Below, piece by piece: positions 38,819-55,582 of a stretch of 64,000 nt of DNA. Origin of the DNA: an uncultured Methanosarcinales archaeon (GTDB lineage: Archaea > Nanobdellota > Nanobdellia > Woesearchaeales > CAYMBN01). Where the stretch lies: contig CAYMBN010000004.1 in NCBI GenBank assembly GCA_964388715.1, positions 31,391 to 95,390 on the forward strand. Reading direction: 5' to 3'. The notes under the pieces were generated by a model. It saw only the letters and a list, made by a program, of their open reading frames with translations. It had not been told where the DNA came from and made no database searches. The position numbers and the translations under genes are program-made. Positions within the stretch are counted from its first letter, which is position 1; every line of letters starts with the position of its first letter.

Positions 38819-39130
38819 AGTAGGGAAATGCCTAACCAACGGTGTTCAATACACTGAGGAAAGTCTGCCCACTACAAAAAGGCTACCTTTCCTAAAAAAA
38901 GGATCCAGAAATGGATGGCAACTGCTCAGAAACGAGACCACCTTTAAAATGAGATGATGCAGTGAAGCATCTGGTAACAGATGTTAGCTAACCTGTTGAT
39001 GTCTTTAAAGGAACGGATGAAACGGCAAGTCCTTAGCCAGTGCAAGTCAATTATTGGCGCTAAGTAGAATGTTAGGAAAGACTATCTGTCTAACAGAGTC
39101 TTACAAAAGGCAGCTTACAATTTCCCTACT
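38819..39130 (+). ncRNA. rnpB: RNase P RNA (about 312 nt)
   Basis: GAGGAAAGTCTGCCCAC matches CR-I (GAGGAAAGUCCGGGC). ACAGAGTCTTACAAAAGGCAGCTTACA matches CR-V (ACAGAA...GGCUUA). AGTAGGGAAAT (38819-38829) pairs perfectly with ATTTCCCTACT (39120-39130) as helix P1. A T8 run follows, and the region is locally GC-richer. Confidence 0.78.
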
Positions 39131-39683: not shown

Positions 39684-39838
39684 ATTTGAATTATTTTTTT
39701 TAAATTATATAAACTTAACTAAAAACCTATTTTCAGTCGAAAAACACAGAAACCTTTAAATACATCTTCCCCTTAAACTATTTAAATATTACTATCAGAG
39801 GGTTAAAATTATTATCCCTAAAAAACGAGGTGGGTTTA

Positions 39839-42800
39839 ATGAGTAGAGTTCTAAATAGATTAATAAATTTAATTTTAATTATGAGTTTGTTCATAATAAT
39901 TATCAACACTGTTTCTGCAGAAAATTGTTGGGAATATGACGCTACTGACAAAGACACTTGTGAAGCTGCAGACACTGATAATGATGGTAGTGCTGACGAC
40001 TGTTCATGGGATTCATGGGGTTATTATTGTATGGAAAAAGGTTGCTGGGATCATTGGACCCAAGATAGTTGTAGTACAGCAAACGCCTCTGGTTGTTTCT
40101 GGCAAACAGAAGCAAACATGGGCTGGGATGACACAACAGGTTGGTGTGAAGAAAGCGCTGATTGTTGGAATTATAATACAGACAATGGTTGTGCTAATGT
40201 AACTGGTTGTCAATGGAAATCCTCCTCATGTCAAGGCCCTTCTGAATGTTCTGATTATAATGATGAAACAAATTGTCATAATTCTGGTTATGGTTGTTGG
40301 TGGGATTATGGTGATTATTGTTATAACCCGGGTTGTTGGGATTATAAAGCAAAAACAAACTGCGAAACAAACAGTTGTTCTTGGGTATCAAATAGCTATT
40401 GCTCTGAAGCAGGTAACAACTGTTGGAATTATGGTAATCAAACAAGTTGTATTGCTGTAGATGGTTGTTCCTGGGAAACATATGGAGATAATGCTGATGA
40501 AGGTTGGTGTTATAAAAAAGGTTGCTGGGAATATAGTACAAATACTACTTGTTTAGCAGACCCAAGCGGCAATTGCGGTTGGGATACTACTTATACTTAT
40601 TGTTATGAAAAAGGTTGCCACCATTATGGGACCAATGATTCAACAACAGGTTGTGTAGCAAACCCTGATGAAGTTATTGGTGGCTGTCAATGGACTCAAA
40701 ATGGATTATGTAAAGAACCAACTTGTTCTGATTATTCTGATAATACAACTTGTACAACAAAAGTAGGTTGCTTCTGGTCAGGTACTGATAATACAACAGG
40801 AACTTGTAAATGGGAAGGTTGTTGGACTTATAATTCTGATTCTACTTGTAGTAACACAACAGGTTGTCAATGGAAACTTGCTTCATGTAATGGTGATTCA
40901 GGTTGTTCAGATTATACTTCATATTCAACTTGTACAGACGCTACTGAATCATGTTGGTGGTCATGGGGTAATTATTGTACTTCTCTTAATTGTTGGAGTT
41001 CACAATTTAGTAATAATCAAACAGCTTGTGAAACAAACACCCAAGCTCAAGGTTTAGATTGTAAATGGGATTCTTACTGGGGAGAATGCTGGGAAAAATG
41101 GTGTGGTGAATATTCCACAGAAAATGCTTGTAATACAAGCATTTCAGGAGATTGTAAATGGATTGATGGCTGGTGTCAAGAAGAAAATTGTTGGGGTTAT
41201 TCAGATACTGCCACCTGCGCAAGTAAGGGTTGTTCTTGGGATGCTGATTATGGATATTGTGAACAATCTGCTGCAGCAAGCTGTTATGACTTAAATGAAT
41301 CATTATGTGGAAGTGCTGCTTATAATAATTCATGTAGATGGGATCAATGGGGTAGTTATTGTACAGAAAAAGGTTGTTGGGACCTTGGAGATAATGTTAG
41401 TTGTACAAACGCAAACCTTTCAATTGAATGTGCTTGGACAGAAACATCAGAAGGATGGTGTGAAGATTCAGGAACACAATGCTGGGATCATTATTTACAA
41501 ACAGATTGTGAAGCAAATAATTGTACATGGGATTCATGGGGTAGTTATTGTATGACACCTGGTTGTTGGGATCACTGGACAGAACCAACATGTGGAAATG
41601 ATTCTGATTGTCAATGGAAAACATCTTCAAACTCTGGCTGGGACTGGGGCTGGTGTGAAAAAAGATCTTGCTGGAATTGGGATAACACAAATGCAAGTGC
41701 ATGTGTAAACACAAGCTTTAGTGAATACAGTCTTAATTGTTCATGGGATGCAGGTGATGCTGGTGAAGGTTGGTGTTATGGTCCATGGCAAAATAAATGT
41801 TGGTACAATGATTCATACATGGGTGGAAATGAATCAGCTTGTGTAACAAACAACATTAGTGGGGTAAATTGTTCATGGAAAGCAGTAACAGGATGGTGTT
41901 ATGAATCAAGAAAAACCTTTAGTGATTTTAATACAGAAGGTGAATGTCTAAAAAGTGGTTGGGGTAAATGGAATGGTACAGAATGTATTACCTCAGGTGA
42001 AACAATGCAAAATTCAGGTTGTTGGATATTTGATGGAAGAGCAGCAGAATGTGTAGCTGTAAGAGGTTGTACTTACAATTCAACAAGCAGAGAATGTGAA
42101 GGACTAGCAACAGAAGGAATACAATGTAATAATATTACAAAATTAGTAGTGAATAATGAAACAAATCAATCACTTTGTGATGTAATTCCAATGTTATCCA
42201 CTTGTTGTGTATGGGAAGCTGGCCAGTGTCAACTTACTTATGATACAACTTGTTGGGATCAAATGGCAGAAGCACCAGTAGGAGCAACAAACTGTATGGA
42301 TTATAATGCAATTGATAGTCCAACTTTATGTAATCAAATAACAGGAGCTCCTTGGTACATGCCATGTAACTGGAATAATGTAAGTGGACAATGTGAATTC
42401 AATGATGATATGGCCACAGACCTTGATAATATTAAAACAAAAAGAGAATGTGAATCAATAGGTGGTACATGGAAAACAGAAAATGTTTGTGGTACTGATA
42501 ATTGTGCATTTGTAAAACAATGGTGTGAAATGGAATCCGGCAGTTCTACATATGGTTGTGATGCATCTTGTTGGGCTTGTAATAGTTCAGAAGCATGTAG
42601 AGCATCTAAAAAAGATTATTGTCAATGGACAACAGACGGAAACATCTCACAAGGTGGGTTCTGTGATATTCCAGACACATTAGAAATACATGGAGATTGT
42701 GACAAATTTTGTGGGTCATGTGAACATTATTCAGGAGGAGATTCTACTCCTGAAAAAGCATGTAAAGCAAGTGCAGCACAATGTAAATGGGACAATGCAA

Positions 42801-45800
42801 CAGAAAACTGTGTTCAGAAAAAAAGTAAAGGATGTTCTGATGATTGTTTCTACTGTTTTGACAAAGAAGGTTGTAGTTTAAATGGTGGTGGTGCACAAGG
42901 AACATGTAAATGGGATGACTTTGATGGCATGTGTAAACCAACAGAATTTGATAGAGAAATCTGTTTTGATGGAGAAGATAATGATAACAATGATTTAATA
43001 GATTGTGAAGATCCAACATGTATGTTTGATCCATTCTGTGGTGGAAGTGAAATGGATGACTGTTGGAATTATTTAGATAATGCAAGTTGTGCTCAAAACA
43101 ATTGTTCTTGGTTCCAAGATCCTTGGACAAATACCAACAGATGTGGTGTAAAAGGTGAAAATTGTTGGATATATGAAACAAACAGTACAGGTTGTATAGG
43201 AGATATTAATTGCCAATGGTATAGTGACACACATTGTGCAATAAACCACACAAAATCAGACACTTGTTTCAAAAAAACAACTCAAACAGGTTGTGAAGCT
43301 GTTAGTTCTTGTAAATGGGAATCAAACTCATATAGTCCACAAGGAGGATGGTGTGATTTTGCTCCATTTGAATGTGGATGGAATCAAACATTACAACAAA
43401 GTAAAGGAAATTGTGAAAGTAATTCTTTATGTGCATGGGTGACAGATCCATTTAGTGGTACTGGTTGGTGTGAAACAAAATGTTTTGCAAGAAACAGTAG
43501 TGGTGGTCAAATTTACAAAACCCAGGCCACTTGTAATGCTGCTATTGCAGGAGGAATATGTGAATGGTCAACAGGTTGGTGTGAACCAAATAGCACAAGA
43601 ATAGGAGCAGTTTCTGGTGAAGATTGTGCATTCTATGATAATAATATTACACAATGTAATAATCAACCAGGGTGTGCATGGTTTGAACAAGCAATGATGG
43701 GTTCTGATTTTGAACATGGCATGGGTGGAGGTTTCTTTGGCTCACAATGTGACGAAAAAATGTCAATAAATTGTTGGGACTTTAGAAACCAATCAGCATG
43801 TAATGGCTCATTAAGAAATGGTTCAGCTAATGCAACAGGAGATGGAGATGCTTGTAGATGGGTTACAGAAGGAACTTGGTCATGGTGTGAACCATTAGGA
43901 ATGCATTGTGGTCCAATGCACGCACCTATTAATTCAACTACAGATCAACCACAATTAAATAATGCAACATGTGCAGGAGATCAATATTGTACTCTTGCTG
44001 AATATGAAGTAGGTAGAGTTGGTTGTATATCAAAGTGTCATAATACAACTTTAGACGAAACAACTTGTGGCCAAGTTGCAAATGGAAACTATTGTGTCTG
44101 GGGAGGTTCAGGCGCAGGAGGAGGAGCCGGCGGTGGCGGCGGTGACTTAACAATGGGTGGCTGGTGTGATCCAGTTGGTTCTCAAAAAATATTCAAAGAT
44201 ATGGAAGGAGGAGCACCTCATATGCTTGCCAATGATGTATGTGGTTCAGGCACAGCAGATAATGCTACTAAAGAATGGGTTGACATTTGTGGTTTAGGCA
44301 TTAAAGAAATGAATGAAGACTATGGAATGGGTATGGGACTACAAGCAATGACTCTTGCAGCTGCCTGTAATGGTGAAACATTATGGGATGAAACAACAGG
44401 ATCAGGAAGAAAAACAACAAAAGGATTCTGGTATCTTGACACAGATGGTGTTGAAACAGGAGGATGTTCATCTGATGATGGTGCTAATACTGGATTTGAA
44501 TTCAAATTCATAGCAAAATGGGAATGGTCAGATAGTGGATTAAAAGAAAAATTAACAGCAAAAAGATGTTTAAGTGGAAACTGGACAGCAGCTAACATCC
44601 GTCTAGATACTCATACAAAGAAAATGTGTCAAGAACTTCAAGGAATGCTTATTACAGTTAAAAAAGCAGACTTAACAAATCTTCCAGCATTGTTTAAGCC
44701 AGAAAGTTCAATGAGAATATATGCAGCTTCAGCTGGAGAAAACAACACAGCACAATTACCTTCAGATACTGTTGGTCCTGGTTATTACAAATCAGGAACA
44801 GTTGACTTTAAAACAGAAGATTGTGCAGCAATTGGAAAAGTTGACAAAGATACTGATGGATTCTATGCTTATGAAGATCCAGATTGTAAACAAATGTATC
44901 TTGATGAAGATAAAGGATTCAAATCAATTGAAGACTGTAAAACAGCACATGATGATGATATGAATGGGTTAACTAATTGTGCAGACCCTGCATGTAAAGA
45001 CGAACCAGTTTGTGGAGGATCTTTAGCACCAAATTCAAGTGATCATACAACACCAGAAATTAAAACACCAGATGTAAATGAACTTAAAACAAAAGCAGTT
45101 ATAGACTTTAAGACAGATGAACGTGCAAATGGAACTCTATTATTTTACAAAACAGATAGTTCATGTAGCTTGCTCAATGCAACTATCAGAGATAGGGGTT
45201 TATGGGCAGGAAATACTTCAAACAATTACACAAAGTACAACTTCAACAAAAAAATACCTATTAACAACTTAACAGCTAACCAAGACGCACTTAACTATTC
45301 ATTAAGTAATGGCACAACCTACTTTTACAAACTAAAAGTATGTGACATTTCAAGCAATTGTGCTCAATCTGGTTGTTTAAACTTCACAACAAAAGCAACA
45401 GCACAAACAAAAACAATGAAATTTACTGACCCTGATGCAAACCAAGCATGGACAATTGATGTAAACGCAACAGGAGATTATTCTGCACAAGGTGGTGGTT
45501 GTGGAACATCAAGTAATAATAGTGGTAGCTTAGGAAGTTTAATTGACCCTGAAGTAAATACACAGATTAATTTACAACAAACACAATCTGGTTCAGGTGG
45601 AAATATCACCGTAGGCATAGGCGGTATTGACACTTCAGCATCAAAGTCAATAGCAAACCTTGACATGGATGTTGGTACAGCTACTGGTCATGAATCAGGA
45701 TCAACAGAAAATTATGTTTGGATCAATGAAAGTGGTTGGGGTGGAGATCAAGGACTTCATACACAAGGTGCACCTGATAATGTCACTATTATTATGCCAG

Positions 45801-46732
45801 GAAGCGATACATATCTTTACGATTGTGAACAAATAGGCAGCAATGGTGCAGTTACAAATTGTACAGATATAACTGATTATGCAACAAGAAGTTATAATGA
45901 AACAACAGCAATGACAACATGGACAATTCCAAATCCAACAGCTGACTTGTGGTCTTACATTGTACCACAAACACCTTCAACAGCAACACCAGATACTTCT
46001 TCATCCTCTGGAGGAGGAGGCGGAGGCGGTGGCGGTGCCGCTGTTACAACAGAAGCAATTGAAGGAGAAAGTGAATCCAGAACATGGGACAAACTAAAAG
46101 CTGGTCAAGACGTATTGTTAGTATTAAGCAAAGATGCAATCCCAGTAAAAGAAATCAAAATAAAAGTTAAGAATGCAGCAACTAATGCTGAACTAAGAGT
46201 TGCAGAACTAACACAAGCACCAACAACAGATGAAACATTAACTACAGTGTACAAATATCTAAAAATGACATTTAGTAATGTAGCAGACTCTGATCTTGAA
46301 TCAGCAGAAGTTACATTTAAAGTAACAAAATCTTGGTTAAATGAACAAGGATTCACCAGAGATGATGTTGTACTAAAGAGATACAAAGATGGTAAATGGA
46401 CAGAACTTGCAACAGAAGTAGTTTCACAAGATACAGCTAAAATAACATTTAAATCAACAACACCTGGCTTCAGTTATTTTGCAGTTGGAATCAAGAAAAC
46501 AGCAGAAGAAGCTAAAAAAGCAGCAGCAGAAACAGGGGAAGAAGTTGTTGAAGAAGAACAAGTAGCAGAAGAAGTATCAGAACAAGAAGAAGTAACAGAA
46601 GAAAAGGAAACCAAGAAACTTAACTTACAACAAACAATTATCTGGATTGTGGTAATACTTGTTGTTTTAATAGCTGTTCTATTAATTATAGAACATAAAT
46701 ACAAAAACCAGAAAATCAAAAAGAAAAAATAA
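39839..46732 (+). CDS. Giant (about 2,297-aa) secreted, C-terminally anchored protein. It is dominated by a Cys/Trp-rich mini-repeat array, followed by an FN3-like domain and a PGF-pre-PGF-like domain.
   Basis: A GAGGTG Shine-Dalgarno sequence lies upstream of the ATG at 39839, and the signal peptide is ...IIIINTVSA|ENC. There are dozens of units such as CSWDSWGYYCMEKGCWDHWTQDSC. The C-terminal block ...VTKSWLNEQGFTRDDVVLKRYKDGKWTELAT...TTPGFSYFAVG is followed by an acidic linker, the TM IIWIVVILVVLIAVLLII and KKKK. Confidence 0.85.
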   Translation: MSRVLNRLINLILIMSLFIIIINTVSAENCWEYDATDKDTCEAADTDNDGSADDCSWDSWGYYCMEKGCWDHWTQDSCSTANASGCFWQTEANMGWDDTTGWCEESADCWNYNTDNGCANVTGCQWKSSSCQGPSECSDYNDETNCHNSGYGCWWDYGDYCYNPGCWDYKAKTNCETNSCSWVSNSYCSEAGNNCWNYGNQTSCIAVDGCSWETYGDNADEGWCYKKGCWEYSTNTTCLADPSGNCGWDTTYTYCYEKGCHHYGTNDSTTGCVANPDEVIGGCQWTQNGLCKEPTCSDYSDNTTCTTKVGCFWSGTDNTTGTCKWEGCWTYNSDSTCSNTTGCQWKLASCNGDSGCSDYTSYSTCTDATESCWWSWGNYCTSLNCWSSQFSNNQTACETNTQAQGLDCKWDSYWGECWEKWCGEYSTENACNTSISGDCKWIDGWCQEENCWGYSDTATCASKGCSWDADYGYCEQSAAASCYDLNESLCGSAAYNNSCRWDQWGSYCTEKGCWDLGDNVSCTNANLSIECAWTETSEGWCEDSGTQCWDHYLQTDCEANNCTWDSWGSYCMTPGCWDHWTEPTCGNDSDCQWKTSSNSGWDWGWCEKRSCWNWDNTNASACVNTSFSEYSLNCSWDAGDAGEGWCYGPWQNKCWYNDSYMGGNESACVTNNISGVNCSWKAVTGWCYESRKTFSDFNTEGECLKSGWGKWNGTECITSGETMQNSGCWIFDGRAAECVAVRGCTYNSTSRECEGLATEGIQCNNITKLVVNNETNQSLCDVIPMLSTCCVWEAGQCQLTYDTTCWDQMAEAPVGATNCMDYNAIDSPTLCNQITGAPWYMPCNWNNVSGQCEFNDDMATDLDNIKTKRECESIGGTWKTENVCGTDNCAFVKQWCEMESGSSTYGCDASCWACNSSEACRASKKDYCQWTTDGNISQGGFCDIPDTLEIHGDCDKFCGSCEHYSGGDSTPEKACKASAAQCKWDNATENCVQKKSKGCSDDCFYCFDKEGCSLNGGGAQGTCKWDDFDGMCKPTEFDREICFDGEDNDNNDLIDCEDPTCMFDPFCGGSEMDDCWNYLDNASCAQNNCSWFQDPWTNTNRCGVKGENCWIYETNSTGCIGDINCQWYSDTHCAINHTKSDTCFKKTTQTGCEAVSSCKWESNSYSPQGGWCDFAPFECGWNQTLQQSKGNCESNSLCAWVTDPFSGTGWCETKCFARNSSGGQIYKTQATCNAAIAGGICEWSTGWCEPNSTRIGAVSGEDCAFYDNNITQCNNQPGCAWFEQAMMGSDFEHGMGGGFFGSQCDEKMSINCWDFRNQSACNGSLRNGSANATGDGDACRWVTEGTWSWCEPLGMHCGPMHAPINSTTDQPQLNNATCAGDQYCTLAEYEVGRVGCISKCHNTTLDETTCGQVANGNYCVWGGSGAGGGAGGGGGDLTMGGWCDPVGSQKIFKDMEGGAPHMLANDVCGSGTADNATKEWVDICGLGIKEMNEDYGMGMGLQAMTLAAACNGETLWDETTGSGRKTTKGFWYLDTDGVETGGCSSDDGANTGFEFKFIAKWEWSDSGLKEKLTAKRCLSGNWTAANIRLDTHTKKMCQELQGMLITVKKADLTNLPALFKPESSMRIYAASAGENNTAQLPSDTVGPGYYKSGTVDFKTEDCAAIGKVDKDTDGFYAYEDPDCKQMYLDEDKGFKSIEDCKTAHDDDMNGLTNCADPACKDEPVCGGSLAPNSSDHTTPEIKTPDVNELKTKAVIDFKTDERANGTLLFYKTDSSCSLLNATIRDRGLWAGNTSNNYTKYNFNKKIPINNLTANQDALNYSLSNGTTYFYKLKVCDISSNCAQSGCLNFTTKATAQTKTMKFTDPDANQAWTIDVNATGDYSAQGGGCGTSSNNSGSLGSLIDPEVNTQINLQQTQSGSGGNITVGIGGIDTSASKSIANLDMDVGTATGHESGSTENYVWINESGWGGDQGLHTQGAPDNVTIIMPGSDTYLYDCEQIGSNGAVTNCTDITDYATRSYNETTAMTTWTIPNPTADLWSYIVPQTPSTATPDTSSSSGGGGGGGGGAAVTTEAIEGESESRTWDKLKAGQDVLLVLSKDAIPVKEIKIKVKNAATNAELRVAELTQAPTTDETLTTVYKYLKMTFSNVADSDLESAEVTFKVTKSWLNEQGFTRDDVVLKRYKDGKWTELATEVVSQDTAKITFKSTTPGFSYFAVGIKKTAEEAKKAAAETGEEVVEEEQVAEEVSEQEEVTEEKETKKLNLQQTIIWIVVILVVLIAVLLIIEHKYKNQKIKKKK

Positions 46733-48359: not shown

Positions 48360-48611
48360 ATGGCAAAAAAATCAACAGATGTTTCAAAAGATGAACAAGT
48401 GGGTTTTCATAAAGGTGCACTAGCAACGCTTGCAAAAGAAAGAGAAGAAATGGCTAAAATTCTTAATATAGTTGAACAACTTATGCAAATGCATATTAAA
48501 GCACTAAAAGAATTAGGAGTTGACTTAGTAGCAGCTGCTAAACAAGTAGCTAAATCAAAAGGAAAATCAGCCAAGAAAAAAGCAAAACCTATTGAAGATC
48601 TCTTAAAGTGA
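48360..48611 (+). CDS. Small helical protein of unknown function
   Basis: 83 aa. GGTGA lies 7 nt upstream of the ATG, and a TATA box lies further upstream. Confidence 0.4.
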   Translation: MAKKSTDVSKDEQVGFHKGALATLAKEREEMAKILNIVEQLMQMHIKALKELGVDLVAAAKQVAKSKGKSAKKKAKPIEDLLK

Positions 48612-49054
48612 GAAAGAAACTCAGAAAAAAAGAAATAAAAGGATTAAATAATAAACTAAAACAACAGTTTGCCAAAGAATTCTTTAATAAAAAAGAAGAT
48701 ATTATTATTGAGGATAATATAATCAAAAAAGACAACAAACCAATGTTTTTCTACTACAAAGACAAACTTATCCCTTCCCTTAAACTAATAATACAAGACA
48801 ACTTCCTAAAAAAAGTGGTTATTGACATGCCTGCTATTCCTTTTATAATAAAAGGAGCAGACATAATGCGCCCAGGTATCAAGGAATTAGATGAATTTGA
48901 AAAAAACGAAATCATTGTTATTGTTGATGAAACACATCAAAAACCTTTAGCAATAGGAATTTCTATGTTCTCAAGTTCTGAAATCAAAGAAATGGACAAA
49001 GGTAAAGTAATTAAAAACATCCATTATGTTGGAGACGTCACTTGGAACCAGTAG
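48608..49054 (+). CDS. PUA-domain RNA-binding protein (MCT-1/Tma20-like)
   Basis: The C-terminal part IKGADIMRPGI...VIVDETHQKPLAIGISMFSSSEI....KGKVIKNIHYVGD is a typical PUA domain. The GTG start overlaps the preceding stop. Confidence 0.6.
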   Translation: MRKKLRKKEIKGLNNKLKQQFAKEFFNKKEDIIIEDNIIKKDNKPMFFYYKDKLIPSLKLIIQDNFLKKVVIDMPAIPFIIKGADIMRPGIKELDEFEKNEIIVIVDETHQKPLAIGISMFSSSEIKEMDKGKVIKNIHYVGDVTWNQ

Positions 49055-49136
49055 TAACAAATAAACCAAAACATTTAAATAGTAGTGTGGTGTTATGTAT
49101 ATTAGTAGCTAGAAAAGTAAGATAATCATAGAAATA

Positions 49137-49144
49137 TTTAAATA
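49137..49144 (+). promoter_or_regulatory. TATA box at the left edge of the island
   Basis: TTTAAATA lies 32 nt upstream of an ATG at 49169 (a 25-codon sORF) and about 165 nt upstream of the first long island ORF. Confidence 0.35.
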
Positions 49145-49308
49145 TAAGTTACGTTTAAACACTTAAAGATGGCACAAAACCATAGAAAATGGAGTCTGTA
49201 TTTCTTTAATCTAGATATTGTGCCTGTTATTAAAACAATGTTCTAATGCCTCAGCACAACAAAAAAACGCAATAAATGCGGTGTGTGTTGCTGGAGGCCA
49301 CGGTTAAA

Positions 49309-50688
49309 ATGAACAAAGATAGCTCTATGGCTGCGGAATGTGTAATGGTTACTTCACCTATTGAAGAACAAATATTCTTAGATACTGTAATAAGAAAAAC
49401 CTTTAATGCTAATGGATTTTACAGAAGGAAAAACAAAATAGCTGCTTCTGGATATTTATCTACTATATTAACTTGTTTAAAATCACAGAATTTACTACCT
49501 ACAGAAACTTCAAAAGAAATATTAGCACATCCTGAAGTTAGATCCTTAATTAACTCTAAAATAATTGAAAGTGATTATTTATCCTATTCTGTTAGAAATG
49601 AAGCTCAAGGAGTAAGATTAGCTGAATTAGTTCTAAATGGTAACTTTGGACATTATAATTGGGAAATAAAGGATATAGAAGAAAGATTTAATGGTTCTGT
49701 TCTTGTTAATCACGTTAAAGAGTATACTCCAACTGTAGAAGGTTTGCCAATAAAAACAGTTCAAGTAGGATTAAAAGGCATTGAACCAAGTCTAAAAGCT
49801 AAGTACAGAAGGTTAGATACTGATGGTTCAGTTGGAGATGCAACAAGATTAAAAGTTGTTACTGAAAATAAAAATGATCTTCTTGAAGTAATCTCACAAT
49901 TTATTTATGATGTAGTTCCAAGATCAGAATTTGAAGTTGTAGAACCAATAGTTAATAATGTTTTAAAGTGGGATGTTGAATCTTATGAGGATTTACCGAA
50001 TGATGTAACCCAAGATTCATTAGAACTACCAGGATATCAATGTAAAAATAAAGTTAAGAAAAGTCAATTCGAAGCAGTCACAGTGCACTTAAGAGGAGAA
50101 GGTAAATATGATACCATGGAAGTACAATTTGTAACAGGAGCAATGGATAAAAGAAACAATTCTCCTGATCCAAATGAACCAGCTTCACATATAAATTACT
50201 TAAAAAGAAGAAATCAATTTGTCAAAACACATCACCCAAAAGGTCCTGAAGTCATTACAACATATGAATTACTAAATGAAAAAGGAAAACCAGGTAAAGG
50301 ACAGGTAACTCTTGATGTTGAGTGTGTTGCACCATGTCAAGCATGCTATTTAGGCTCAAAATTAAAATTAGATTTCAGTGAATATGATATCCAAACAAGA
50401 GAGCAAAAAGATTATAATGAAAAATTTAAACCTACCTCACCTTTAAGTCACAGAGAACAATACATCTTTGAAATTAATGATAAATATAGACACAGTGTCT
50501 TAATGAAACTTGAAGGAGTATTAGATGATTATCGGAATGAATTAAAAGATAAAAATATGAGAATTGCAAAAGAATGCAGTTTAATTACAGAAGAACAATT
50601 AGAACAAAGCCTAAGAAAAAGTTCAGTATATCTCCCAGGTATTGAATTTATACCAAAGCCAACTAATCAAGAAATAATTTCACATTAA
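49309..50688 (+). CDS. Divergent RelA/SpoT-like (RSH synthetase-fold) nucleotidyltransferase candidate
   Basis: Ordered motifs align to small alarmone synthetases. VGLKGIEPSLKAKYRR matches GRVKxxxSIxEKxxRK. GDATRLKVVT matches DIAGLRI. PGYQ matches GYRS. MEVQFVTGAM matches VEIQIRTxxM. SHINYLK matches EHxxxYK. I chose the ATG at 49309 because GGAGG lies 11 nt upstream; the track start is 49276. Confidence 0.4.
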   Translation: MNKDSSMAAECVMVTSPIEEQIFLDTVIRKTFNANGFYRRKNKIAASGYLSTILTCLKSQNLLPTETSKEILAHPEVRSLINSKIIESDYLSYSVRNEAQGVRLAELVLNGNFGHYNWEIKDIEERFNGSVLVNHVKEYTPTVEGLPIKTVQVGLKGIEPSLKAKYRRLDTDGSVGDATRLKVVTENKNDLLEVISQFIYDVVPRSEFEVVEPIVNNVLKWDVESYEDLPNDVTQDSLELPGYQCKNKVKKSQFEAVTVHLRGEGKYDTMEVQFVTGAMDKRNNSPDPNEPASHINYLKRRNQFVKTHHPKGPEVITTYELLNEKGKPGKGQVTLDVECVAPCQACYLGSKLKLDFSEYDIQTREQKDYNEKFKPTSPLSHREQYIFEINDKYRHSVLMKLEGVLDDYRNELKDKNMRIAKECSLITEEQLEQSLRKSSVYLPGIEFIPKPTNQEIISH

Positions 50689-50707
50689 TTTTTTCAAAAT
50701 CAATAAA

Positions 50708-50791
50708 ATGACACAAACCACCCCTCAAAAATTAGTAAAGATTCTGAGTTTGTTAGTGTTAATTATTGTTTTTTACCTTATGTTGTTTTGA
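50708..50791 (+). CDS. Possible 27-aa hydrophobic peptide
   Basis: MTQTTPQKLVKILSLLVLIIVFYLMLF sits in the 166-nt gap between island genes 1 and 2. I see no clear ribosome-binding site. Confidence 0.15.
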   Translation: MTQTTPQKLVKILSLLVLIIVFYLMLF

Positions 50792-50854
50792 TGCCTTGCA
50801 CACAATTCTTTTCTGCAAGACCAAAAACAGGTGTTTAAAGATACGAGGATAAAA

Positions 50855-51529
50855 ATGCAACCAGAACTTATAACTAACCCAAAAAAGTACGCTAAGGATG
50901 TTATGTATAGAGCAATGAGTAGTGCTTCTGGTAGAGGATATAATCCTTCTGTAGTTGGTTACTTATCTGATAATATGTTTACTGTTAATTTAGGAGAAGA
51001 TTCTGTTGATTTTGTAAATAATGGTATAGGGATGTTGTATGCAAAAACTAGAGCTAGTGGTGTAATAGACAGAAGGGGTGTAAGATTAACATTACAAGCT
51101 CTTTTGGAAGAATCAAGAAGCCTAGGTATTGAAAAATCATCTGATTTAGGGAATTTGATAATGCTTTTAGCATCGCTTTCTAATCCTGTTGGAAAGGATG
51201 GTATAAGTAGAAGGGATTTTTATGATGGTTGTGGTGGAGAATTGTATAGATTAGCTTCAAATTATCAAAAGAAAGGTATGCTTAGACCTGCAGATGATCC
51301 AAAGAAACCTATCTTTGTTGAGTTATGTAGATGGTTTCCTAACTATAGAGAACTGTTAACTTGTGCTATTGGTGAATGTGTTTCAGATGCTGATGGTGTG
51401 ATGAATGAATTATTATTTGGTGGAGAACTTCCTAGTTGGTTGAAGAAAATGTTAGTTGGTGATTCAAATCCTATTCCAATAATAAATATAACAAATGTAG
51501 GAGGTGATAAAATACCTATAATCAACTAG
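50855..51529 (+). CDS. Orphan 224-aa island protein, function unknown
   Basis: GAGGA lies 5 nt upstream of the ATG at 50855. The G/R/V-richer composition is unlike the flanking K/I/N-rich host proteins. No motif recognised. Confidence 0.55.
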   Translation: MQPELITNPKKYAKDVMYRAMSSASGRGYNPSVVGYLSDNMFTVNLGEDSVDFVNNGIGMLYAKTRASGVIDRRGVRLTLQALLEESRSLGIEKSSDLGNLIMLLASLSNPVGKDGISRRDFYDGCGGELYRLASNYQKKGMLRPADDPKKPIFVELCRWFPNYRELLTCAIGECVSDADGVMNELLFGGELPSWLKKMLVGDSNPIPIINITNVGGDKIPIIN

Positions 51530-51542
51530 GTAGAAGCTTAAA

Positions 51543-53279
51543 ATGAGATCAATGGTTTACTATGTAGGTCAACAGAAAGATGGTACATATTGTGTTCAAG
51601 TTGAGGAAAAAGGAATAGGAAAAAAAGGTTTTAAAAGATTTTTAAGTCCTATACAGTTGTTAGCAGAACTTCAGAGGAATAATAAGGAGATTATTGCTGT
51701 TAGGTCTGCGAGTCAATCATTAGGAGGAAAAAATGAAGATATTAATGCATTTATTGAAAGGTTGTCTGTTAATTTGAGAGCAGAAGATAGTTTATATCTT
51801 ACTTTAGAAGAAAGGTTAAAATATGCTGAAGAATATTCAGAACAGTCTGGCGCATTACTTTATCTGTTGTATGGAAGAGAAAGTTCAGATGGTAGTTTTG
51901 CAGTAGAGATGATAGATTTGTGTTCTAATAGAGAGGATACTCTTGCATTAGTTCTTCCTTACAAAGAATTATATGATTTAATTAAAAAATATAGTGATAA
52001 AGTTATAGGAGTTGGAGCAAAGAGTGAATATGTACGTGTTGCAGAAGGTAAACTTAATAAGTTGTTAGAAGGTAGGCAAAAACATTTGTGTGTTAATGAG
52101 TTTGAACAAACTTGTGGAAACAGATCAAAAGCTTACAAAATTATTCATGCTGTTGATGGAAAATATAAACTAGAAATTGATGATTTATTGTCGGCAGCAG
52201 AAGTAATAACAATGGTTGTTACTCGTGATGAACTTTATGAAAAAGTTGAAAGAAATCATCAGGAGATTTTAAGAGTATGTATGCCAAAGGATTCATTTAC
52301 TAATGAATTAAATGATTTGGTTAGTGAACTTAATGCCTATGTTAAAGAAAGAGAAGTAGTAAAAACTGTTATTCCTCAACATACCTCTGGAAAAAAGTCA
52401 AAATCTTATAGGGTTGCTTATTTAAATAATGAGATGTATATTTTAGTGATAGAAGATTTATTGTCACCAGATGGACCAATAAAAAGGATTGTTACTCGTG
52501 ATGAGCTTTTTAAGGAGGTTAAGAAGAATACTAAAGAAATTATTGGTGTTGATGCTTATGGTGAAGGATGTGATGGTGAACTTAAGCAATTAGTACATGA
52601 ATTAAATAGTATTCCCAATCCAGTTCCAGCAAAAGAGAGAGAAAACTTAAATGTTGATTTATGGGGTGTAAATAAAAAGAAAGGTGTTCAGTATTGTGAA
52701 ACTGTACATGGAGATATAATTGTCAGGACAAAAAAGTATGGAGTTGTTGAATATGAATATGTGAGTCCTAAAAAGTTAGATTTAATATGTGAAGAAGCAA
52801 AAAGGTTAGGAAAAAAGATTTCAGCTAACTCTGCTTTAAGATGTGGACCACTTCCAAATGATTTTTTAGAGAATTATAAAAGAAAAGTGGTTTATACAAT
52901 CTTAAGAGGAGATGCACCCGGTTTATATAATATAGAAATAAAAGATATTTTTAATCCTAATAGAAAGTTTAAGCTTTTAAAAGAAAATGAGCCAGTTAAA
53001 GCACAATCTAGATTCCAAACAATTCAGAGAGTAGATGGTTCAATTACTTTGGAAGAAGTTAATGAAAAAGCAAAAGATCCGGGCTTAGCAAATTATTTTG
53101 AAAATGTAAGATATGAAACTTTAGAAATGTCAGTAAGAAGTTATTCCTGTGATTTAATTGGTGTTGTTGCAAAGGAGCATAATAAGTGTGAAAATATGAA
53201 AAGAACTGCATCAAGATTAAATAGGTTAATTCCAACTCCCTTACAAAATGAAGGACGTGTGGAGGGAAGTTCTCTTTAG
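51543..53279 (+). CDS. 578-aa protein built from about 5-7 tandem copies of a roughly 91-92-aa module, function unknown
   Basis: Modules start near aa 5, 104, 196, 288 and 380. Each has Y.v....DG.Y.l.i.D, then V(T/L).(D/K)EL(Y/F)..V.K....I.GV, then a helix (L..LV.ELN). GTTACTCGTGATGA recurs at 52218 and 52491, an offset of 273 nt. Confidence 0.6.
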   Translation: MRSMVYYVGQQKDGTYCVQVEEKGIGKKGFKRFLSPIQLLAELQRNNKEIIAVRSASQSLGGKNEDINAFIERLSVNLRAEDSLYLTLEERLKYAEEYSEQSGALLYLLYGRESSDGSFAVEMIDLCSNREDTLALVLPYKELYDLIKKYSDKVIGVGAKSEYVRVAEGKLNKLLEGRQKHLCVNEFEQTCGNRSKAYKIIHAVDGKYKLEIDDLLSAAEVITMVVTRDELYEKVERNHQEILRVCMPKDSFTNELNDLVSELNAYVKEREVVKTVIPQHTSGKKSKSYRVAYLNNEMYILVIEDLLSPDGPIKRIVTRDELFKEVKKNTKEIIGVDAYGEGCDGELKQLVHELNSIPNPVPAKERENLNVDLWGVNKKKGVQYCETVHGDIIVRTKKYGVVEYEYVSPKKLDLICEEAKRLGKKISANSALRCGPLPNDFLENYKRKVVYTILRGDAPGLYNIEIKDIFNPNRKFKLLKENEPVKAQSRFQTIQRVDGSITLEEVNEKAKDPGLANYFENVRYETLEMSVRSYSCDLIGVVAKEHNKCENMKRTASRLNRLIPTPLQNEGRVEGSSL

Positions 53280-53396
53280 AATACCGCTAAAAACTTTGGT
53301 GTATAAACTGCCAATGGCTGATAGAGAAAGATTATATAATCTTAAAGTAGATGATTGAGGAAGTATTAGGAAACCTGACAAACATCCTAGCGTTAT

Positions 53397-53846
53397 TTAC
53401 CCAATCCTCCGAACCTTAGGAACATAATTAAATATTCTTCCTTCTTTGTATTTACCGCAACCAAAACAATCTTCCTTATGTTTAACAATCACAAACCCAC
53501 TTAACTCATCACTGCAATCAATATCTTCTCCTTTTAACCATTTCTTTAAACCTTTTTCATCAACCTCAAGAACATTCTTCTTAGCATTAACTAATTGACT
53601 TCCTTCAATACTTAATCTAAGCTCACTTTTGATTTCACCAAAATACAATCCAAGAGAATTCACTCTTAATCTAGAAAAATCAATATCAAAAACATCTTTA
53701 TCAACCAAGTATAACTTACTTTTGTCAGATTTTAACCACACAAAATCTTGTTTAACACAACCATTCCACTGCTTTTTAATCATGTTAAGTATTTCTTTTG
53801 CTTGCTTCTTATTCAAAATAGTAAGATTTTGCATTAAACTCCCCAT
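53397..53846 (-). CDS. Nip7-like pre-PUA/PUA RNA-binding protein
   Basis: About 145-149 aa. The N-terminal half is a helical/beta region, and the C-terminal GFVIVKHKEDCFGCGKYKEGRIFNYVPK resembles a PUA-type beta barrel. An alternative ATG at 53834 overlaps the aIF5B stop. Confidence 0.4.
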   Translation of the reverse strand: MGSLMQNLTILNKKQAKEILNMIKKQWNGCVKQDFVWLKSDKSKLYLVDKDVFDIDFSRLRVNSLGLYFGEIKSELRLSIEGSQLVNAKKNVLEVDEKGLKKWLKGEDIDCSDELSGFVIVKHKEDCFGCGKYKEGRIFNYVPKVRRIG

Positions 53847-55582
53847 AAAACATTTTCTTTACGTTTAATCTCAGCAATCTCTTTAAGAATTTCAATATCT
53901 TCTTTTGTTAAATGTTTTTTAACTTCTTTCAATTTTCTGAACTCTTGTTCAGAAATAGCACTATATAATATATCACCTTCATTGATCTGCCTTCCAACAG
54001 TAACCTTACTCAGAGAAGCTGCAACTCTTTTCTCCTTTTCAGCTTTATTAACATTCTTTTTTTCCTCTTGCATACTTAAAACATTTGTTATCTCTTTCCC
54101 ATCCTTTTTCATTAAACCAATTCCAGTTTTCAAAATTCCACCGATAACTTCAACACCAACAATAGCAGGATTATTTTGTCTAAAAACATACCCTTTTAAC
54201 AATTCAACTTTACACGGCATTGTTAGTTCATCAAGTGCACCAGCTTCTTGCCTAATCTTTTCTTCTTTAACCCATGCTTCAAAGTCTTCAATCAGTTTGT
54301 AGATAACTTTATTTACAATAATCTTAACCTTACTACTCTTAACCTTAGAATCATCAACAACATTAAAACCCAATATAACACTTTTCAAAATATCTTCATT
54401 ACTTTCAGCATCAGATATATCTTTTTTAGTTATATTGCCAACTTGCGCTTTCCTTACCATAATATCTTTATCCTTAAGTAACTTAACCAATGCTTCTAAA
54501 CTACCTAATGTATCTGCTTTAATTATAATACCATCTTTATCAATTTCAATCAAAGCTTCCTTCACCTCTTTTTGAATCTCTTTTTTAACTTTCTCAACCT
54601 CACTTTGTTTACAAGAAACAATTGGCATCCCTGCAATAACTTTATCAAGTTCAGGTGCACTTATCTTAACACCAACTGCAGCAAAAACCTGTTTAACAGA
54701 CTTAAACTTAGTTTTTTTATCACGCATCTCTTTTAATGGTGCAGGTTCAAGCAAAGCTCTAACCTTAGTAACAATTGGTTTATCAACAGAACCAATTACA
54801 ATTGTATCATTTTGTTTCAATGTTCCATTATAAATTATTACATCAATTGTAGTACCAAGCCCTTTCTCCTCTTTAACTTCCAAAACACTTCCTTTTGCAT
54901 TTCCTTTTACATCACATTTAAGACATTCTTCCAAAAACTTTTGTGCAAGACCAGATATAACCATTAACAATTCAGGAATACCTTCTCCTGTCTTTGCACT
55001 GCAAGGAACAATTGCAATTTGTTTTGTAAAATCATCAATTCTATCAAACCTTTCAGAATTAAAATCAAGCTCACTTAATTTTCCAACAATCTCATACATC
55101 TTTTTTTCAACTGTTTCAACAACATTCTGTGTTTGTTTTTGAATATTATTTAACACAAACTTTTCTTTTGACTTCCAACCAGGTAAAAGATCAACTTTAT
55201 TTGCAGCAATTATAAACGGTGTCTTAGAAATCTTTAATATTTTAATTGATTCAAGTGTTTGCGGCTTAAAACCTTCATTAATATCAATAACAAGAATAGC
55301 AATATCAGCTAAATTTCCACCTCTTTTCCTTAAACTTGTAAATGCTTCGTGACCAGGTGTATCAATAAATAATAAACCAGGAATAGTCAACTTAGTTTTC
55401 TTAATCAAATCTCCACATATCTTTTGTATTGTTTTAATCGGAACAATTGACGCACCAACATGTTGTGTTATCATACCTGGTTCAGTATTAATTATAGTGC
55501 TGCCTCTAATCTTATCAAGTATACTTGACTTTCCATGGTCTACATGACCTACAACAGTACATATTGGACTTCTAATTGCCAT
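53834..55582 (-). CDS. infB: Translation initiation factor aIF5B (IF2P)
   Basis: It has RSPICTVVGHVDHGKSSILDKIRG (G1), DTPGHEAF (G3) and NKVD (G4). The four-domain length of 582 aa has no N-terminal extension, as expected for archaeal aIF5B. Confidence 0.92.
   Translation of the reverse strand: MAIRSPICTVVGHVDHGKSSILDKIRGSTIINTEPGMITQHVGASIVPIKTIQKICGDLIKKTKLTIPGLLFIDTPGHEAFTSLRKRGGNLADIAILVIDINEGFKPQTLESIKILKISKTPFIIAANKVDLLPGWKSKEKFVLNNIQKQTQNVVETVEKKMYEIVGKLSELDFNSERFDRIDDFTKQIAIVPCSAKTGEGIPELLMVISGLAQKFLEECLKCDVKGNAKGSVLEVKEEKGLGTTIDVIIYNGTLKQNDTIVIGSVDKPIVTKVRALLEPAPLKEMRDKKTKFKSVKQVFAAVGVKISAPELDKVIAGMPIVSCKQSEVEKVKKEIQKEVKEALIEIDKDGIIIKADTLGSLEALVKLLKDKDIMVRKAQVGNITKKDISDAESNEDILKSVILGFNVVDDSKVKSSKVKIIVNKVIYKLIEDFEAWVKEEKIRQEAGALDELTMPCKVELLKGYVFRQNNPAIVGVEVIGGILKTGIGLMKKDGKEITNVLSMQEEKKNVNKAEKEKRVAASLSKVTVGRQINEGDILYSAISEQEFRKLKEVKKHLTKEDIEILKEIAEIKRKENVLWGV

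Follow-up and report, generated by a model that had tools for sequence, protein, structure and literature searches.

A divergent RelA/SpoT homologue and two lineage-restricted orphan genes in the PUA-Nip7 slot of a woesearchaeal genome

Within the analyzed stretch of 64,000 nucleotides (the window), three genes were distinguished between a PUA-domain gene and a convergent Nip7-like gene. The first of them (g1) is homologous to RSH (RelA/SpoT homologue) proteins and is syntenic with PUA and Nip7 in related Woesearchaeota. We consider it probable that g1 was inherited vertically and belongs, as a fast-evolving member, to the RSH superfamily, residing in the PUA-Nip7 slot and carrying a core of the small alarmone synthetase (SAS) type. 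The other two genes (g2 and g3) are a closely spaced pair of lineage-restricted orphans with host-like composition. The locus and its borders are composed of the following elements:

48608..49054, + strand: PUA-domain (MCT-1/Tma20-like) gene, 148 aa, left border (Pfam PUA, 3.3e-20)
49309..50688, + strand: g1, 459 aa, divergent RelA/SpoT homologue, small-alarmone-synthetase-like
50689..50854, + strand: g1-g2 spacer, 166 nt (sequence inspection)
50855..51529, + strand: g2, 224 aa, orphan
51543..53279, + strand: g3, 578 aa, tandem-repeat protein
53397..53846, - strand: Nip7-like PUA gene, convergent, right border (Pfam Methyltranf_PUA, 3.9e-13)
53834..55582: aIF5B, beyond the Nip7-like gene and overlapping it

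The first-pass annotation had described three co-directional genes of 459, 224 and 578 aa, all of which are present, and had put a PUA gene on one side of them and Nip7-like/aIF5B genes, in convergent orientation, on the other, with which the Pfam matches agree. The long non-coding leader that it placed 5' of g1 is 221 nt long if the first in-frame ATG is taken as its end, and 254 nt long up to the homology-backed start. Alternative upstream starts were found for g1 (49276, giving 470 aa, vs. 49309 and 459 aa) and g2 (50831, giving 232 aa, vs. 50855 and 224 aa); start codon 49309 was set by a common N-terminus, MNKD.SMA (MNKDSSMA... in g1). Inspection of the spacer revealed a T-run immediately 3' of the g1 stop codon, which is a possible archaeal terminator. 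Given this T-run and the 166-nt spacing, g1 and g2 constitute no obvious bicistron; the g2 stop and the g3 start are separated by 13 nt. The spacer contains the motif TTTTGATGCCTTGCACAC, whose similarity to a g1 leader motif is below significance (local-alignment shuffles, p ~0.02-0.2), and the covariance model of the leader (see below) has no match in the spacer.

The DNA composition of the three genes is normal and host-like. They had been presented as a GC-richer island (35-37 vs. 22-28% G+C), but the actual 60-nt lines average 31.2% in the region and 30.4% in the flanks, and the supposed compositional distinctness disappears in the sliding-window G+C, GC3 and codon usage, all of which are ordinary. 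The G+C content of the three-gene region is 31.07%, vs. 30.71% for the whole window (60th percentile among windows of the same size), the GC3 of g1-g3 (0.15-0.18) matches that of the neighbors, and the synonymous-codon divergence from the remaining window (0.073, 0.141, and 0.104, respectively) is typical or low given the gene lengths. As for the reported amino-acid bias, the lower K/I/N content holds against the immediate flanks (K+I+N fraction of 0.20-0.22 vs. 0.26-0.39 in the adjoining proteins), with K/I/N equally scarce in some further genes of the window, whereas the G+R+V+C values, claimed to be higher, overlap those of the flanks. Shine-Dalgarno starts, ascribed to all three genes, were recognized for g1 (GGAGG at -16..-12) and g2 (GAGGA at -12..-8), but g3 has merely a weak AGGT; the TATA-like box near -30, said to be common elsewhere, is present in several neighbors (Drg, the RNA_binding gene and a 157-aa gene). 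Searches around the region for insertion marks (tRNAs, flanking repeats, integrase) found none.

An exhaustive phmmer search with g1 identified three full-length relatives, P0004 (E 3.5e-19), P0005 (2e-18) and P0007 (1.5e-11), sharing 22-26% identity with g1 over the full length (alignment A1). They match Pfam RelA_SpoT (PF04607) with 42.3, 38, and 30.6 bits, respectively, all above the gathering threshold of 27 bits. Since g1 alone stays under all thresholds in Pfam, NCBIfam and PDB searches, its family assignment is transitive. No PDB chain was retrieved with the family profile (A1), and hhalign of the g1 family with E. coli RelA/SpoT (E 0.0015) placed the D-x-x-x-x-K/R, Y/F-Q/E-x-x-H, E-x-Q and H-x-x-Y motifs in collinear order (E. 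coli counterparts: FDVRAVRIV, GYQSIH, VEIQIRT and AAHWKYK). The RSH-like nucleotidyltransferase signature noticed earlier in g1 is thus upheld by the Pfam matches of its relatives and by this collinearity. In the protein (pI 5.9; single-sequence AF2 model uninformative, pLDDT 34), the NTase domain lies centrally, between a helical N-terminal region and a C-terminal region that is variable. The core limits were transferred via A1 from the PF04607 match of P0004 (132-272):

49768..50205, + strand: g1 RelA_SpoT-like synthetase core, residues 154-299, mapped from P0004
residues 154-168: core motif GLKGIEPSLKAKYRR
residues 176-184: core motif GDATRLKVV, with Asp177
residues 254-261: core motif FEAVTVHL
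residues 270-276: core motif MEVQFVT, with Glu271 and Gln273
residues 292-301: core motif ASHINYLKRR

Several core residues deviate from the RSH pattern. In the ATP-binding motif RxK, g1 has Gly154 where the three relatives retain the first Arg, Thr258 stands in place of the GYxSxH His and Phe in place of its Tyr, and the Arg of ExQ[IL]RT is missing throughout the family. Hence, g1 may differ in activity or substrate, or may have become inactive. The Gly, Thr and Phe replacements, together with the failure of g1 to reach profile thresholds that its relatives pass, would suit a catalytically dead pseudo-enzyme, i.e., a nucleotide-binding or ribosome-associated regulator keeping the RSH fold. 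We judge this very unlikely: Asp177 (metal-binding), Glu271/Gln273, Lys156, Ser161, Lys165 and His294...Tyr297 are invariant in the family and all kept in g1, and Phe can still stack on an acceptor base. As a resident RSH-superfamily member, g1 would hold its SAS-like pyrophosphokinase core between lineage-specific N- and C-terminal regions, and would most likely move pyrophosphate from ATP onto a purine nucleotide, at its 3'-OH, or possibly onto an RNA/tRNA end, family membership being the sole guide to both activity and substrate. The product would be an alarmone-type signal linked to the surrounding translation genes.

The PUA-Nip7 slot was compared among relatives reaching at most about 65% aIF5B identity. 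In L065 and L068, the PUA gene (148 aa) is followed by a RelA_SpoT-like gene (405 and 410 aa, respectively) and a facing Nip7 gene, while L067 and L069 carry a RelA_SpoT-like gene and then a convergent Nip7. L006 contains a 277-aa ORF with the same leader hairpin upstream and the same N-terminal peptide, probably a diverged third g1-like gene in the same slot as in L065 and L068. Identity between these genomes is 64% for aIF5B, 45-51% for PUA and only 25% for g1. The view of g1 as a foreign insert, or as part of an inserted island, was rejected, because its orthologues hold the same slot in L065 and L068. Direct adjacency of PUA and Nip7, envisaged for relatives without the insert, occurs in none of the 12 related loci having both genes (ten from a genome scan, plus L065 and L068), and the gap spans 1.3 to 4.2 kb across the ten genome-scan loci.

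An RSH-kin-like gene lies in the slot or just beyond Nip7 in 10 of 16 related Woesearchaeota lineages, as a synthetase-like gene alone, an HD-hydrolase-like gene followed by a synthetase-like one, or HD-containing proteins. The HD families filling the slot in other lineages bear HDxxED and DRLHN motifs, and five of the top PDB matches of their profile, including both leading ones (5xnx, E 0.0014), are RSH-type proteins; hhalign of these families with RelA/SpoT gave E 6e-4. The slot genes of L017 and L016 match HD_4 (26.2 bits) and the profile of these HD families (2e-19), respectively. Slot families B, L008, L011 and L013 showed no statistical link to g1, and unrelated cargo occupies the slot in L014 (RNA ligase and PIN) and L010 (aaRS-like and methyltransferase genes); hotspot gene turnover, not in-place divergence, could thus account for some of the pattern.

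The g1 leader contains two elements:

49132..49148, + strand: TATA-like A/T-rich box, candidate g1 promoter (sequence inspection, alignment)
49241..49298, + strand: conserved leader element, with 5' flank UUCUAAU (49241-49247) and hairpin (49248-49298)

The box aligns with 'AACCTATATA' boxes in the L065, L067 and L068 leaders, and as a promoter it would yield a ~150-nt 5' UTR. The hairpin is in register across five orthologous leaders and shows covariation: 97.4% of the alignment cells are paired, with compensatory changes at 3 pairs, compared with 28-60% paired in slid controls; 9 of 500 shuffles do as well. Its covariance model found nothing beyond the five leaders in 395 kb, and the element has no family match in Rfam. 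The conserved hairpin ends at the ribosome-binding site, and here includes the site itself (GGAGG sits within its 3' arm); g1 expression is probably controlled post-transcriptionally through this putative regulatory hairpin.

The two downstream genes were detected only in this one near-clonal population. The orphan status proposed for g2 stands, with no match in Pfam, NCBIfam, PADLOC or PHROGs, and only itself recovered from a search of 5.8 billion proteins; its only PDB match, to the repeated linker motif of CpcN, is weak (E 9e-4 to 0.01). The protein has zero histidines and a pI of 6.4. The tandem-repeat nature of g3 was likewise borne out, repeats 3 and 4 sharing 41% identity (E 1e-16) and the repeat profile finding 7 domain matches. 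It consists of 6.5 copies of a ~80-aa beta-beta-beta-alpha-beta-alpha domain:

51543-51776, 51840-52091, 52116-52358, 52389-52628, 52674-52892 and 53004-53246, + strand: g3 full repeats
52878-52988, + strand: g3 half repeat

The AF2 model of repeat 4, with the repeats serving as the alignment, reached pLDDT 89 and pTM 0.77, and Foldseek with the repeat gave no confident structural relative. The predicted string of small alpha/beta domains does not look enzymatic and points to g3 as a scaffold or as a binding protein with multivalent contacts. A functional tie of g1 with g2 and g3 is putative. The two might instead be cargo of a variable hotspot, functionally independent of the RSH gene and originating from an old insertion, de novo genes or viruses. 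The lineage-dependent slot content and gap length, the terminator-like T-run, the occurrence of g1 orthologues without g2 and g3, and the lack of homologues of both genes are consistent with this, but it appears unlikely, given their entirely host-like composition and codon usage, the missing insertion marks, IMG/VR viral contigs holding nothing related, and their location near g1 on the same strand.

The first-pass annotation had likened the trio, as a toxic NTase beside possible neutralizing or sensing partners, to toxSAS toxin-antitoxin and CapRel-type defense modules. In a module of this kind, g1 would be a pyrophosphokinase that arrests growth, either by synthesis of (pp)pApp or by pyrophosphorylation of tRNA CCA ends, with g2 and/or the multi-domain g3 as its neutralizer or as invader sensor. 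Such a module would fit an RSH-type synthetase with extra domains that diverges far faster than its neighbors, orphan partners (many immunity and antitoxin proteins are such), and the HD-hydrolase and synthetase-like pairs of other lineages, which recall toxSAS with SAH antitoxins. The idea of conflict remains tenable in a weaker form, as the slot is lineage-variable and HD, PIN and RNA-ligase genes occur in it too, with a Fic gene in the neighboring Nip7-aIF5B gap of L068. The module itself is distinctly unlikely: the g1 orthologues of L065 and L068 stand alone, which weakens it, g2/g3 beside a g1 relative were never found outside one population, PADLOC gave no match, g1 is acidic, and the spacer and T-run part g1 from g2. 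Its stable position among translation genes, across lineages of ~60-65% aIF5B identity, is also unlike that of mobile toxin-antitoxin or defense cargo.

Among known systems, the g3 repeat shares its topology with RNase-H-like and ASKHA N-subdomain folds (type III pantothenate kinase, YeaZ/TsaB, the Tex YqgF domain and RuvC-like domains), at query-normalized TM of 0.5-0.6, all E >= 0.027 and 8-17% identity, but its repeats are devoid of a conserved acidic catalytic set, and the 6.5-copy array has no match in the libraries of the tools used. RSH-family genes as such are common ground with earlier surveys: 41.7% of the Woesearchaeota genomes in one survey had annotated RelA/SpoT genes (PMC8407392), and archaeal RSHs were described as sporadic (Atkinson et al., 2011; PMC3153485). 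Those genes were detected by standard annotation and read as bacterial transfers, whereas the g1 family escapes standard profiles and is bound to one conserved PUA-Nip7 locus and a leader hairpin, neither being mentioned in the consulted passages of the two papers. With toxSAS and CapRel (FaRel, FaRel2, PhRel, CapRel; PMC7229694, PMC11782079), g1 has in common the RSH synthetase domain with accessory regions and rapid sequence divergence, and its sister lineages the adjoining HD-type hydrolase gene, as in SAH-antitoxin pairs. The locus, in which toxicity of g1 is hypothetical, differs in having solitary g1 orthologues instead of a conserved two-gene unit, syntenic stability where those modules are mobile and patchily distributed, no PADLOC model matched, and g2 and g3 without likeness to known antitoxin families. 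The SAS of the RelP/RelQ type (PF04607) share with g1 a homologous synthetase core (transitively, via P0004, P0005 and P0007) and the lack of an HD domain within the protein. In comparison with SAS, g1 itself is not detected by Pfam, the ExQ[IL]RT Arg is gone family-wide (in g1, the Arg of RxK and the His of GYxSxH are gone as well), and the g1 family (400-460 aa), with ~150-aa N-terminal and ~150-aa C-terminal regions added, is archaeal and chromosomally fixed amid translation genes.

The region comprises three co-directional genes (g1, g2 and g3), located between a gene for a PUA-domain (MCT-1-like) protein and a convergent gene for a Nip7-like protein. The space between these two flanking genes is referred to as the slot. 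The layout, in window coordinates, is as follows:

48608-49054, PUA-domain gene, upstream neighbour of g1
49276 or 49309 to 50688, g1, same strand as g2 and g3 (ORF call)
50855-51529, g2, 224 aa, co-directional with g1 and g3
51543-53279, g3, 578 aa, co-directional with g1 and g2
downstream of g3, convergent Nip7-like PUA gene, then aIF5B

The g1 start at 49309 (MNKDSSMA...) agrees in alignment with the N-termini of g1 relatives. Genes g2 and g3 are separated by 13 nt and g1 and g2 by 166 nt, with a T-run immediately 3' of the g1 stop codon. The window is archaeal, with a G+C content of 30.7%, and its aIF5B shares 59-65% identity with aIF5Bs of Woesearchaeota (e.g. GW2011_AR15). Near-unchanged copies of the g1-g3 DNA were found in several metagenome assemblies; the three differences in total over all copies indicate one near-clonal population and are too few for a selection test. 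Five related MAGs (L006, L008, L013, L017 and L019), GTDB representatives titled "uncultured Methanosarcinales archaeon", show Woesearchaeota-type synteny (aIF5B-Nip7...PUA-83aa) and aIF5Bs 59-65% identical to that of the window, and their Methanosarcinales titles are probably mislabelled. Among the small genes nearby, the 83-aa gene (48360-48611, plus strand), located just upstream of the PUA gene with a 4-nt overlap, is the most conserved, at 56-75% identity between Woesearchaeota, and belongs to no Pfam family. An archaeal RNase P RNA is encoded at 38820-39129 (plus strand; Rfam RF00373, 154 bits, E 1e-43).

The first-pass annotation described g1-g3 as a compositionally distinct, GC-rich island with its own amino acid usage. 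The nucleotide composition does not bear this out: the G+C content of the region is 31.07%, compared with 30.71% for the window (60th percentile of windows of the same size), the mean of 60-nt lines is 31.2% within it and 30.4% in the flanking DNA, and GC3 of the three genes (0.15-0.18) is like that of their neighbours. Their synonymous divergence from the rest of the window (0.073, 0.141 and 0.104 for g1, g2 and g3, respectively) lies within the range of 0.04-0.35 seen among the window's 46 long ORFs, which served as a reference. Two further observations proved partly correct: (i) the proteins are poorer in K+I+N (0.20-0.22 vs. 0.26-0.39 in the immediate flanks), and their G+R+V+C content overlaps that of the flanks; and (ii) of the Shine-Dalgarno starts claimed for all three genes, those of g1 (GGAGG) and g2 (GAGGA) are present at suitable distances. 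TATA-like boxes near -30 precede Drg, an RNA_binding gene and a 157-aa gene. The compositionally unusual stretches of the window are two giant ORFs, not the g1-g3 region. These span 39830-46732 (2300 aa) and 24791-34468 (about 3226 aa); the 2300-aa product contains 7.7% Cys and a C-terminal transmembrane segment, and its gene has a G+C content of 37%, visibly above the window average.

Signs of mobility were also sought. No tRNA gene was detected in the 64-kb window (ARAGORN in bacterial mode, which intron-containing or split archaeal tRNAs could escape), direct repeats around g1-g3 were short and at chance level, integrase-like Pfam matches were absent from the three genes and their flanks, and IMG/VR viral contigs contained no relative of the g1 family, g2 or g3. 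An empty site, with the PUA gene directly adjoining Nip7, was found neither in 10 genome-scan loci nor in the related loci L065 and L068 (relatives with up to about 65% aIF5B identity).

The product of g1 is not recognised in Pfam, NCBIfam, PADLOC, PHROGs or PDB sequence searches; it gives no match to the RelA_SpoT profile PF04607 even at E up to 10, and a word-indexed search of 5.8 billion proteins returned only g1 itself. Four non-self matches came from phmmer, run index-free against 1.84 billion representatives. Three of them, P0004, P0005 and P0007 (E 3.5e-19, 2e-18 and 1.5e-11, respectively), are proteins of 405-423 aa that can be aligned with g1 over the entire length (22-26% identity) and score 42.3, 38 and 30.6 bits against PF04607, all above the gathering threshold of 27. 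Membership of g1 in RelA_SpoT is therefore transitive, via these relatives, rather than by its own profile match, and the domain projects through the alignment onto residues 154-299. The fourth match, P0006 (2059 aa), was rejected as spurious: this eukaryote-like repeat protein with BED zinc fingers pairs its repeated "LPGYKAKCNNCGK" with "LPGYQCKNK" in g1.

An hhalign comparison of the g1 family with RelA/SpoT of E. coli (E 0.0015; RelA residues 269-358) placed four motif pairs in collinear order.

Motif pairs of the g1 family and E. coli RelA/SpoT (hhalign)
GDATRLKVV in the g1 family, FDVRAVRIV in RelA/SpoT
SQFEAVTVHL in the g1 family, NGYQSIHTVV in RelA/SpoT
MEVQFVT in the g1 family, VEIQIRT in RelA/SpoT
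ASHINYL in the g1 family, AAHWKYK in RelA/SpoT

The RSH (RelA/SpoT homologue) synthetase motifs compared were RxKxxxSxxxK, the Mg-binding Asp (DxxGxR), GYxSxH, ExQ[IL]RT and HxxYK; in RSH enzymes, their Asp and Glu serve in catalysis and bind the metal. Gene g1 retains Asp177, Glu271, Gln273, Lys156, Ser161, Lys165 and His294...Tyr297, all invariant across its family. It departs from its own relatives at three sites (Gly154 for the Arg of RxK, Phe254 for the Tyr and Thr258 for the His of GYxSxH), and the Arg of ExQ[IL]RT is missing throughout the family. A single-sequence AF2 model of g1 was unusable (pLDDT 34), PDB sequence searches with g1, P0004 and the g1-family profile gave nothing useful, and a metagenome scan with the family recovered only the contig of P0007 itself. 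The RSH-like signature first read in g1 is thus upheld by relatives that pass the PF04607 gathering score and by motifs collinear with RelA/SpoT, and on these two lines the assignment of g1 to the RSH superfamily is well supported at the sequence level.

Upstream of g1 and of its relatives lies a conserved leader element:

window 49241-49298, upstream of g1, UUCUAAU followed by a hairpin
L065 approximately 841-889, upstream of the g1 orthologue
L067 approximately 106-164, upstream of the g1 orthologue
L068 approximately 3591-3645, upstream of the g1 orthologue
L006 15989-16054, minus strand, upstream of a 277-aa ORF

All five leaders contain UUCUAAU, then a hairpin that opens with GCC, closes with GGC and ends three nt before an SD-like AAGGU(A/G)A. 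Each of them folds alone into the hairpin in the identical register, and RNAalifold predicts eight consensus pairs, three of which show compensatory changes, altered on both sides (e.g. GCCUUG/CAAGGC, GCCGCA/UGCGGC and GCCUUAAC/GUUGGGGC). In the five leaders 97.4% of cells are paired, a value reached by 9 of 500 shuffles, and sliding the partner by 1-3 columns lowers pairing to 28-60%. A covariance model built from these sequences found no further match in 395 kb (window plus related loci). The support for a cis-regulatory RNA is consistent and, with five sequences only, modest. The 3' arm of the window hairpin (49290-49298) includes the GGAGG earlier taken as the Shine-Dalgarno sequence, and we infer that the hairpin controls translation of g1. 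As the element has no match in Rfam, it may represent a new small cis-regulatory RNA motif. A similar arrangement, TTTTGATGCCTTGCACAC with a small hairpin (50789-50835), occurs ahead of g2, 66 nt from its start, at the same distance as the g1 motif; as a second copy it was rejected, since shuffling gave no significance and the covariance model no match.

The position of g1 is shared by its relatives. In L065, a PUA gene (148 aa) is followed by a 259-nt spacer, a RelA_SpoT-like gene (405 aa), a convergent Nip7-like gene and, further on, aIF5B; this order recurs in L068, where the protein has 410 aa, and in L067 and L069 a RelA_SpoT-like gene precedes convergent Nip7. The first-pass view of g1 as an insert is contradicted by these orthologues in the same PUA-to-Nip7 position (L065 and L068) and by the 10 genome-scan loci with both flanks, in which PUA and Nip7 lie 1.3-4.2 kb apart, with 1-3 ORFs in PUA orientation between them. 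Identity between the window and the genomes of the g1 relatives is 64% for aIF5B, 45-51% for PUA, 44-47% for Nip7 and only 25% for g1, so that a conserved position is combined with fast sequence evolution.

In other lineages the slot, or the place just past Nip7, holds HD-hydrolase-like genes (locus coordinates, minus strand):

L009 5584-8291, with a second gene bearing synthetase-like motifs
L015 13221-16072, with a second gene bearing synthetase-like motifs
L019 12827-15575, with a second gene bearing synthetase-like motifs
L017 12199-14025, Pfam HD_4 just below threshold
L016 2844-4484, HD-profile match

The first slot genes of L009, L015 and L019 form families with HDxxED and K-x-x-D-R-L-H/D-N motifs. 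Five of the eight PDB matches of their joint profile, including the best two, are of RSH type; 5xnx (the Rel protein of M. tuberculosis, E 0.0014), 3nqw (Mesh1) and one small alarmone hydrolase belong to these five. Comparison with RelA/SpoT gave E 6e-4 (hhalign). The L016 ORF beside Nip7 matches the HD profile at 2e-19, and the 608-aa protein of L017 scores 26.2 bits against Pfam HD_4, just below the gathering score of 27.2. These HD genes are very divergent, and Pfam sees just that of L017, slightly under threshold. In the second slot genes (family B), RxKxxxSxxxK, DxxGxTIV and EIQ motifs were seen by eye. As the statistics reach just E 0.016-0.077 against the g1 family (0.15 against RelA/SpoT), we only infer a synthetase nature for family B, whose profile gave nothing useful in a PDB sequence search. 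The 277-aa ORF of L006, which shares the g1 N-terminal peptide and leader element, is probably a diverged or truncated g1 orthologue. Altogether, 10 of 16 related lineages examined gave some indication of RSH-type genes, either in the slot or directly beyond Nip7. The evidence ranges from Pfam level (L065, L067 and L068) and HD profile (L009, L015, L016, L017 and L019) to motifs noted by eye (family B) and a shared leader plus N-terminal peptide only (L006). The slot ORFs of L008, L011 and L013 could be placed in no family.

Gene turnover also takes place in the slot, and other genes were found in or beside it:

L014 12230-13659, slot with an RNA ligase and a PIN-domain gene
L010 12248-15550, slot with an 827-aa class-I aaRS-like ORF and a methyltransferase
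L068 5432-7426, Fic-domain gene and 315-aa ORF between Nip7 and aIF5B
L065 2614-3594, 326-aa ORF between Nip7 and aIF5B

The content of this neighbourhood varies, and it is a possible hotspot for genes of conflict type or of RNA repair.

Neither g2 nor g3 matched anything in Pfam, NCBIfam, PADLOC or PHROGs, and the word-indexed search of 5.8 billion proteins returned each of them only as itself; on this word-indexed search, their orphan status, proposed earlier for g2, is provisional. The g2 protein contains no histidine. Its residues 16-56 (window 50900-51022) weakly resemble the phycobilisome linker CpcN (PDB 8imn, E 9e-4 to 0.01), through five sub-threshold matches to one short motif, "GY..IDSYL.S.EY...FGED.VPF", that recurs in five linker domains. 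This likeness was set aside as uninformative; it probably reflects chance or a short helical motif common to both.

The tandem-repeat nature of g3 was confirmed: a unit of about 80 aa occurs six times in full and once as a half repeat, with seven profile matches, and repeats 3 and 4 share 41% identity (E 1e-16). With the g3 repeats serving as each other's alignment, AF2 predicted repeat 4 as beta-beta-beta-alpha-beta-alpha (pLDDT 89, pTM 0.77). Foldseek matches were only weak, with E no better than 0.027 in PDB and 0.006 in BFVD, and pointed to RNase-H-like/ASKHA-type subdomains (CoaX, YeaZ/TsaB, Tex YqgF, RuvC-like) and to small uncharacterised phage proteins; a HicB-like identity, the initial guess, found no support in either match list. 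PDB sequence searches with g3 and its repeat profile gave nothing useful. Conservation in the repeat falls on hydrophobic core positions and a DG turn, and an acidic catalytic set is absent; g3 is read as a putative non-enzymatic scaffold or binding protein of several domains. No significant link was found between g2 or g3 and the slot ORFs of L006 (91 and 473 aa), L008, L010, L011 and L013 by BLASTP, hmmsearch or hhalign, the best E of about 0.01 among 78 comparisons being not significant.

By analogy, g1-g3 could be a toxin-antitoxin or defence module of toxSAS/CapRel type, as first proposed. Such a module would agree with the rapid divergence of g1, with the HD and synthetase-like gene pairs of sister lineages and with the PIN, Fic and RNA ligase domains, all of conflict type, in or beside the slot. 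However, in toxSAS systems the SAS gene is accompanied by an adjacent cognate antitoxin gene conserved across genomes, and the g1 orthologues of L065 and L068 have no partner, being flanked only by PUA (about 260-280 nt upstream) and convergent Nip7. In addition, g2 and g3 were found in this one population only, the synteny is stable, the g1 product is acidic (pI 5.9), and none of the three genes matches a PADLOC-DB v2 family (E up to 1). On the best-supported reading of the sequences, g1 is resident in Woesearchaeota, a fast-evolving, synthetase-like gene of the RSH family that carries a structured leader of its own; g2 and g3 are additions restricted to this lineage, and their composition resembles that of the host.

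Signalling of the (p)ppGpp type is regarded as essentially bacterial. The fixed RSH-family gene and its conserved leader suggest that DPANN archaea retain such an enzyme and regulate it: it occupies a fixed place among translation genes in several Woesearchaeota lineages and is too diverged for standard profiles. As for known RSH genes, a genome survey gives RelA/SpoT annotations for 41.7% of Woesearchaeota genomes (PMC8407392), and in the classic RSH census archaeal members are only sporadic (PMC3153485); the present results suggest that surveys undercount archaeal RSH genes. Genes g1, P0004 and P0007 provide concrete constructs for asking whether archaea make alarmones or pyrophosphorylate RNA, and the g3 repeat, a confidently predicted small domain without recognisable relatives, is a candidate partner of the putative g1 enzyme.

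It is conceivable, though we consider it improbable, that the slot is a dedicated archaeal alarmone locus in Woesearchaeota, in which a very divergent RSH synthetase, gated in translation by the leader hairpin, is wired to translation factors (the MCT-1-like PUA protein, Nip7, aIF5B and Drg), with g2 and the seven-domain g3 scaffold, which would bind or sense for the enzyme, as a new pair of partners recruited in this lineage. If so, the circuit would resemble a stringent response or abortive infection and would have a composition so far undescribed.
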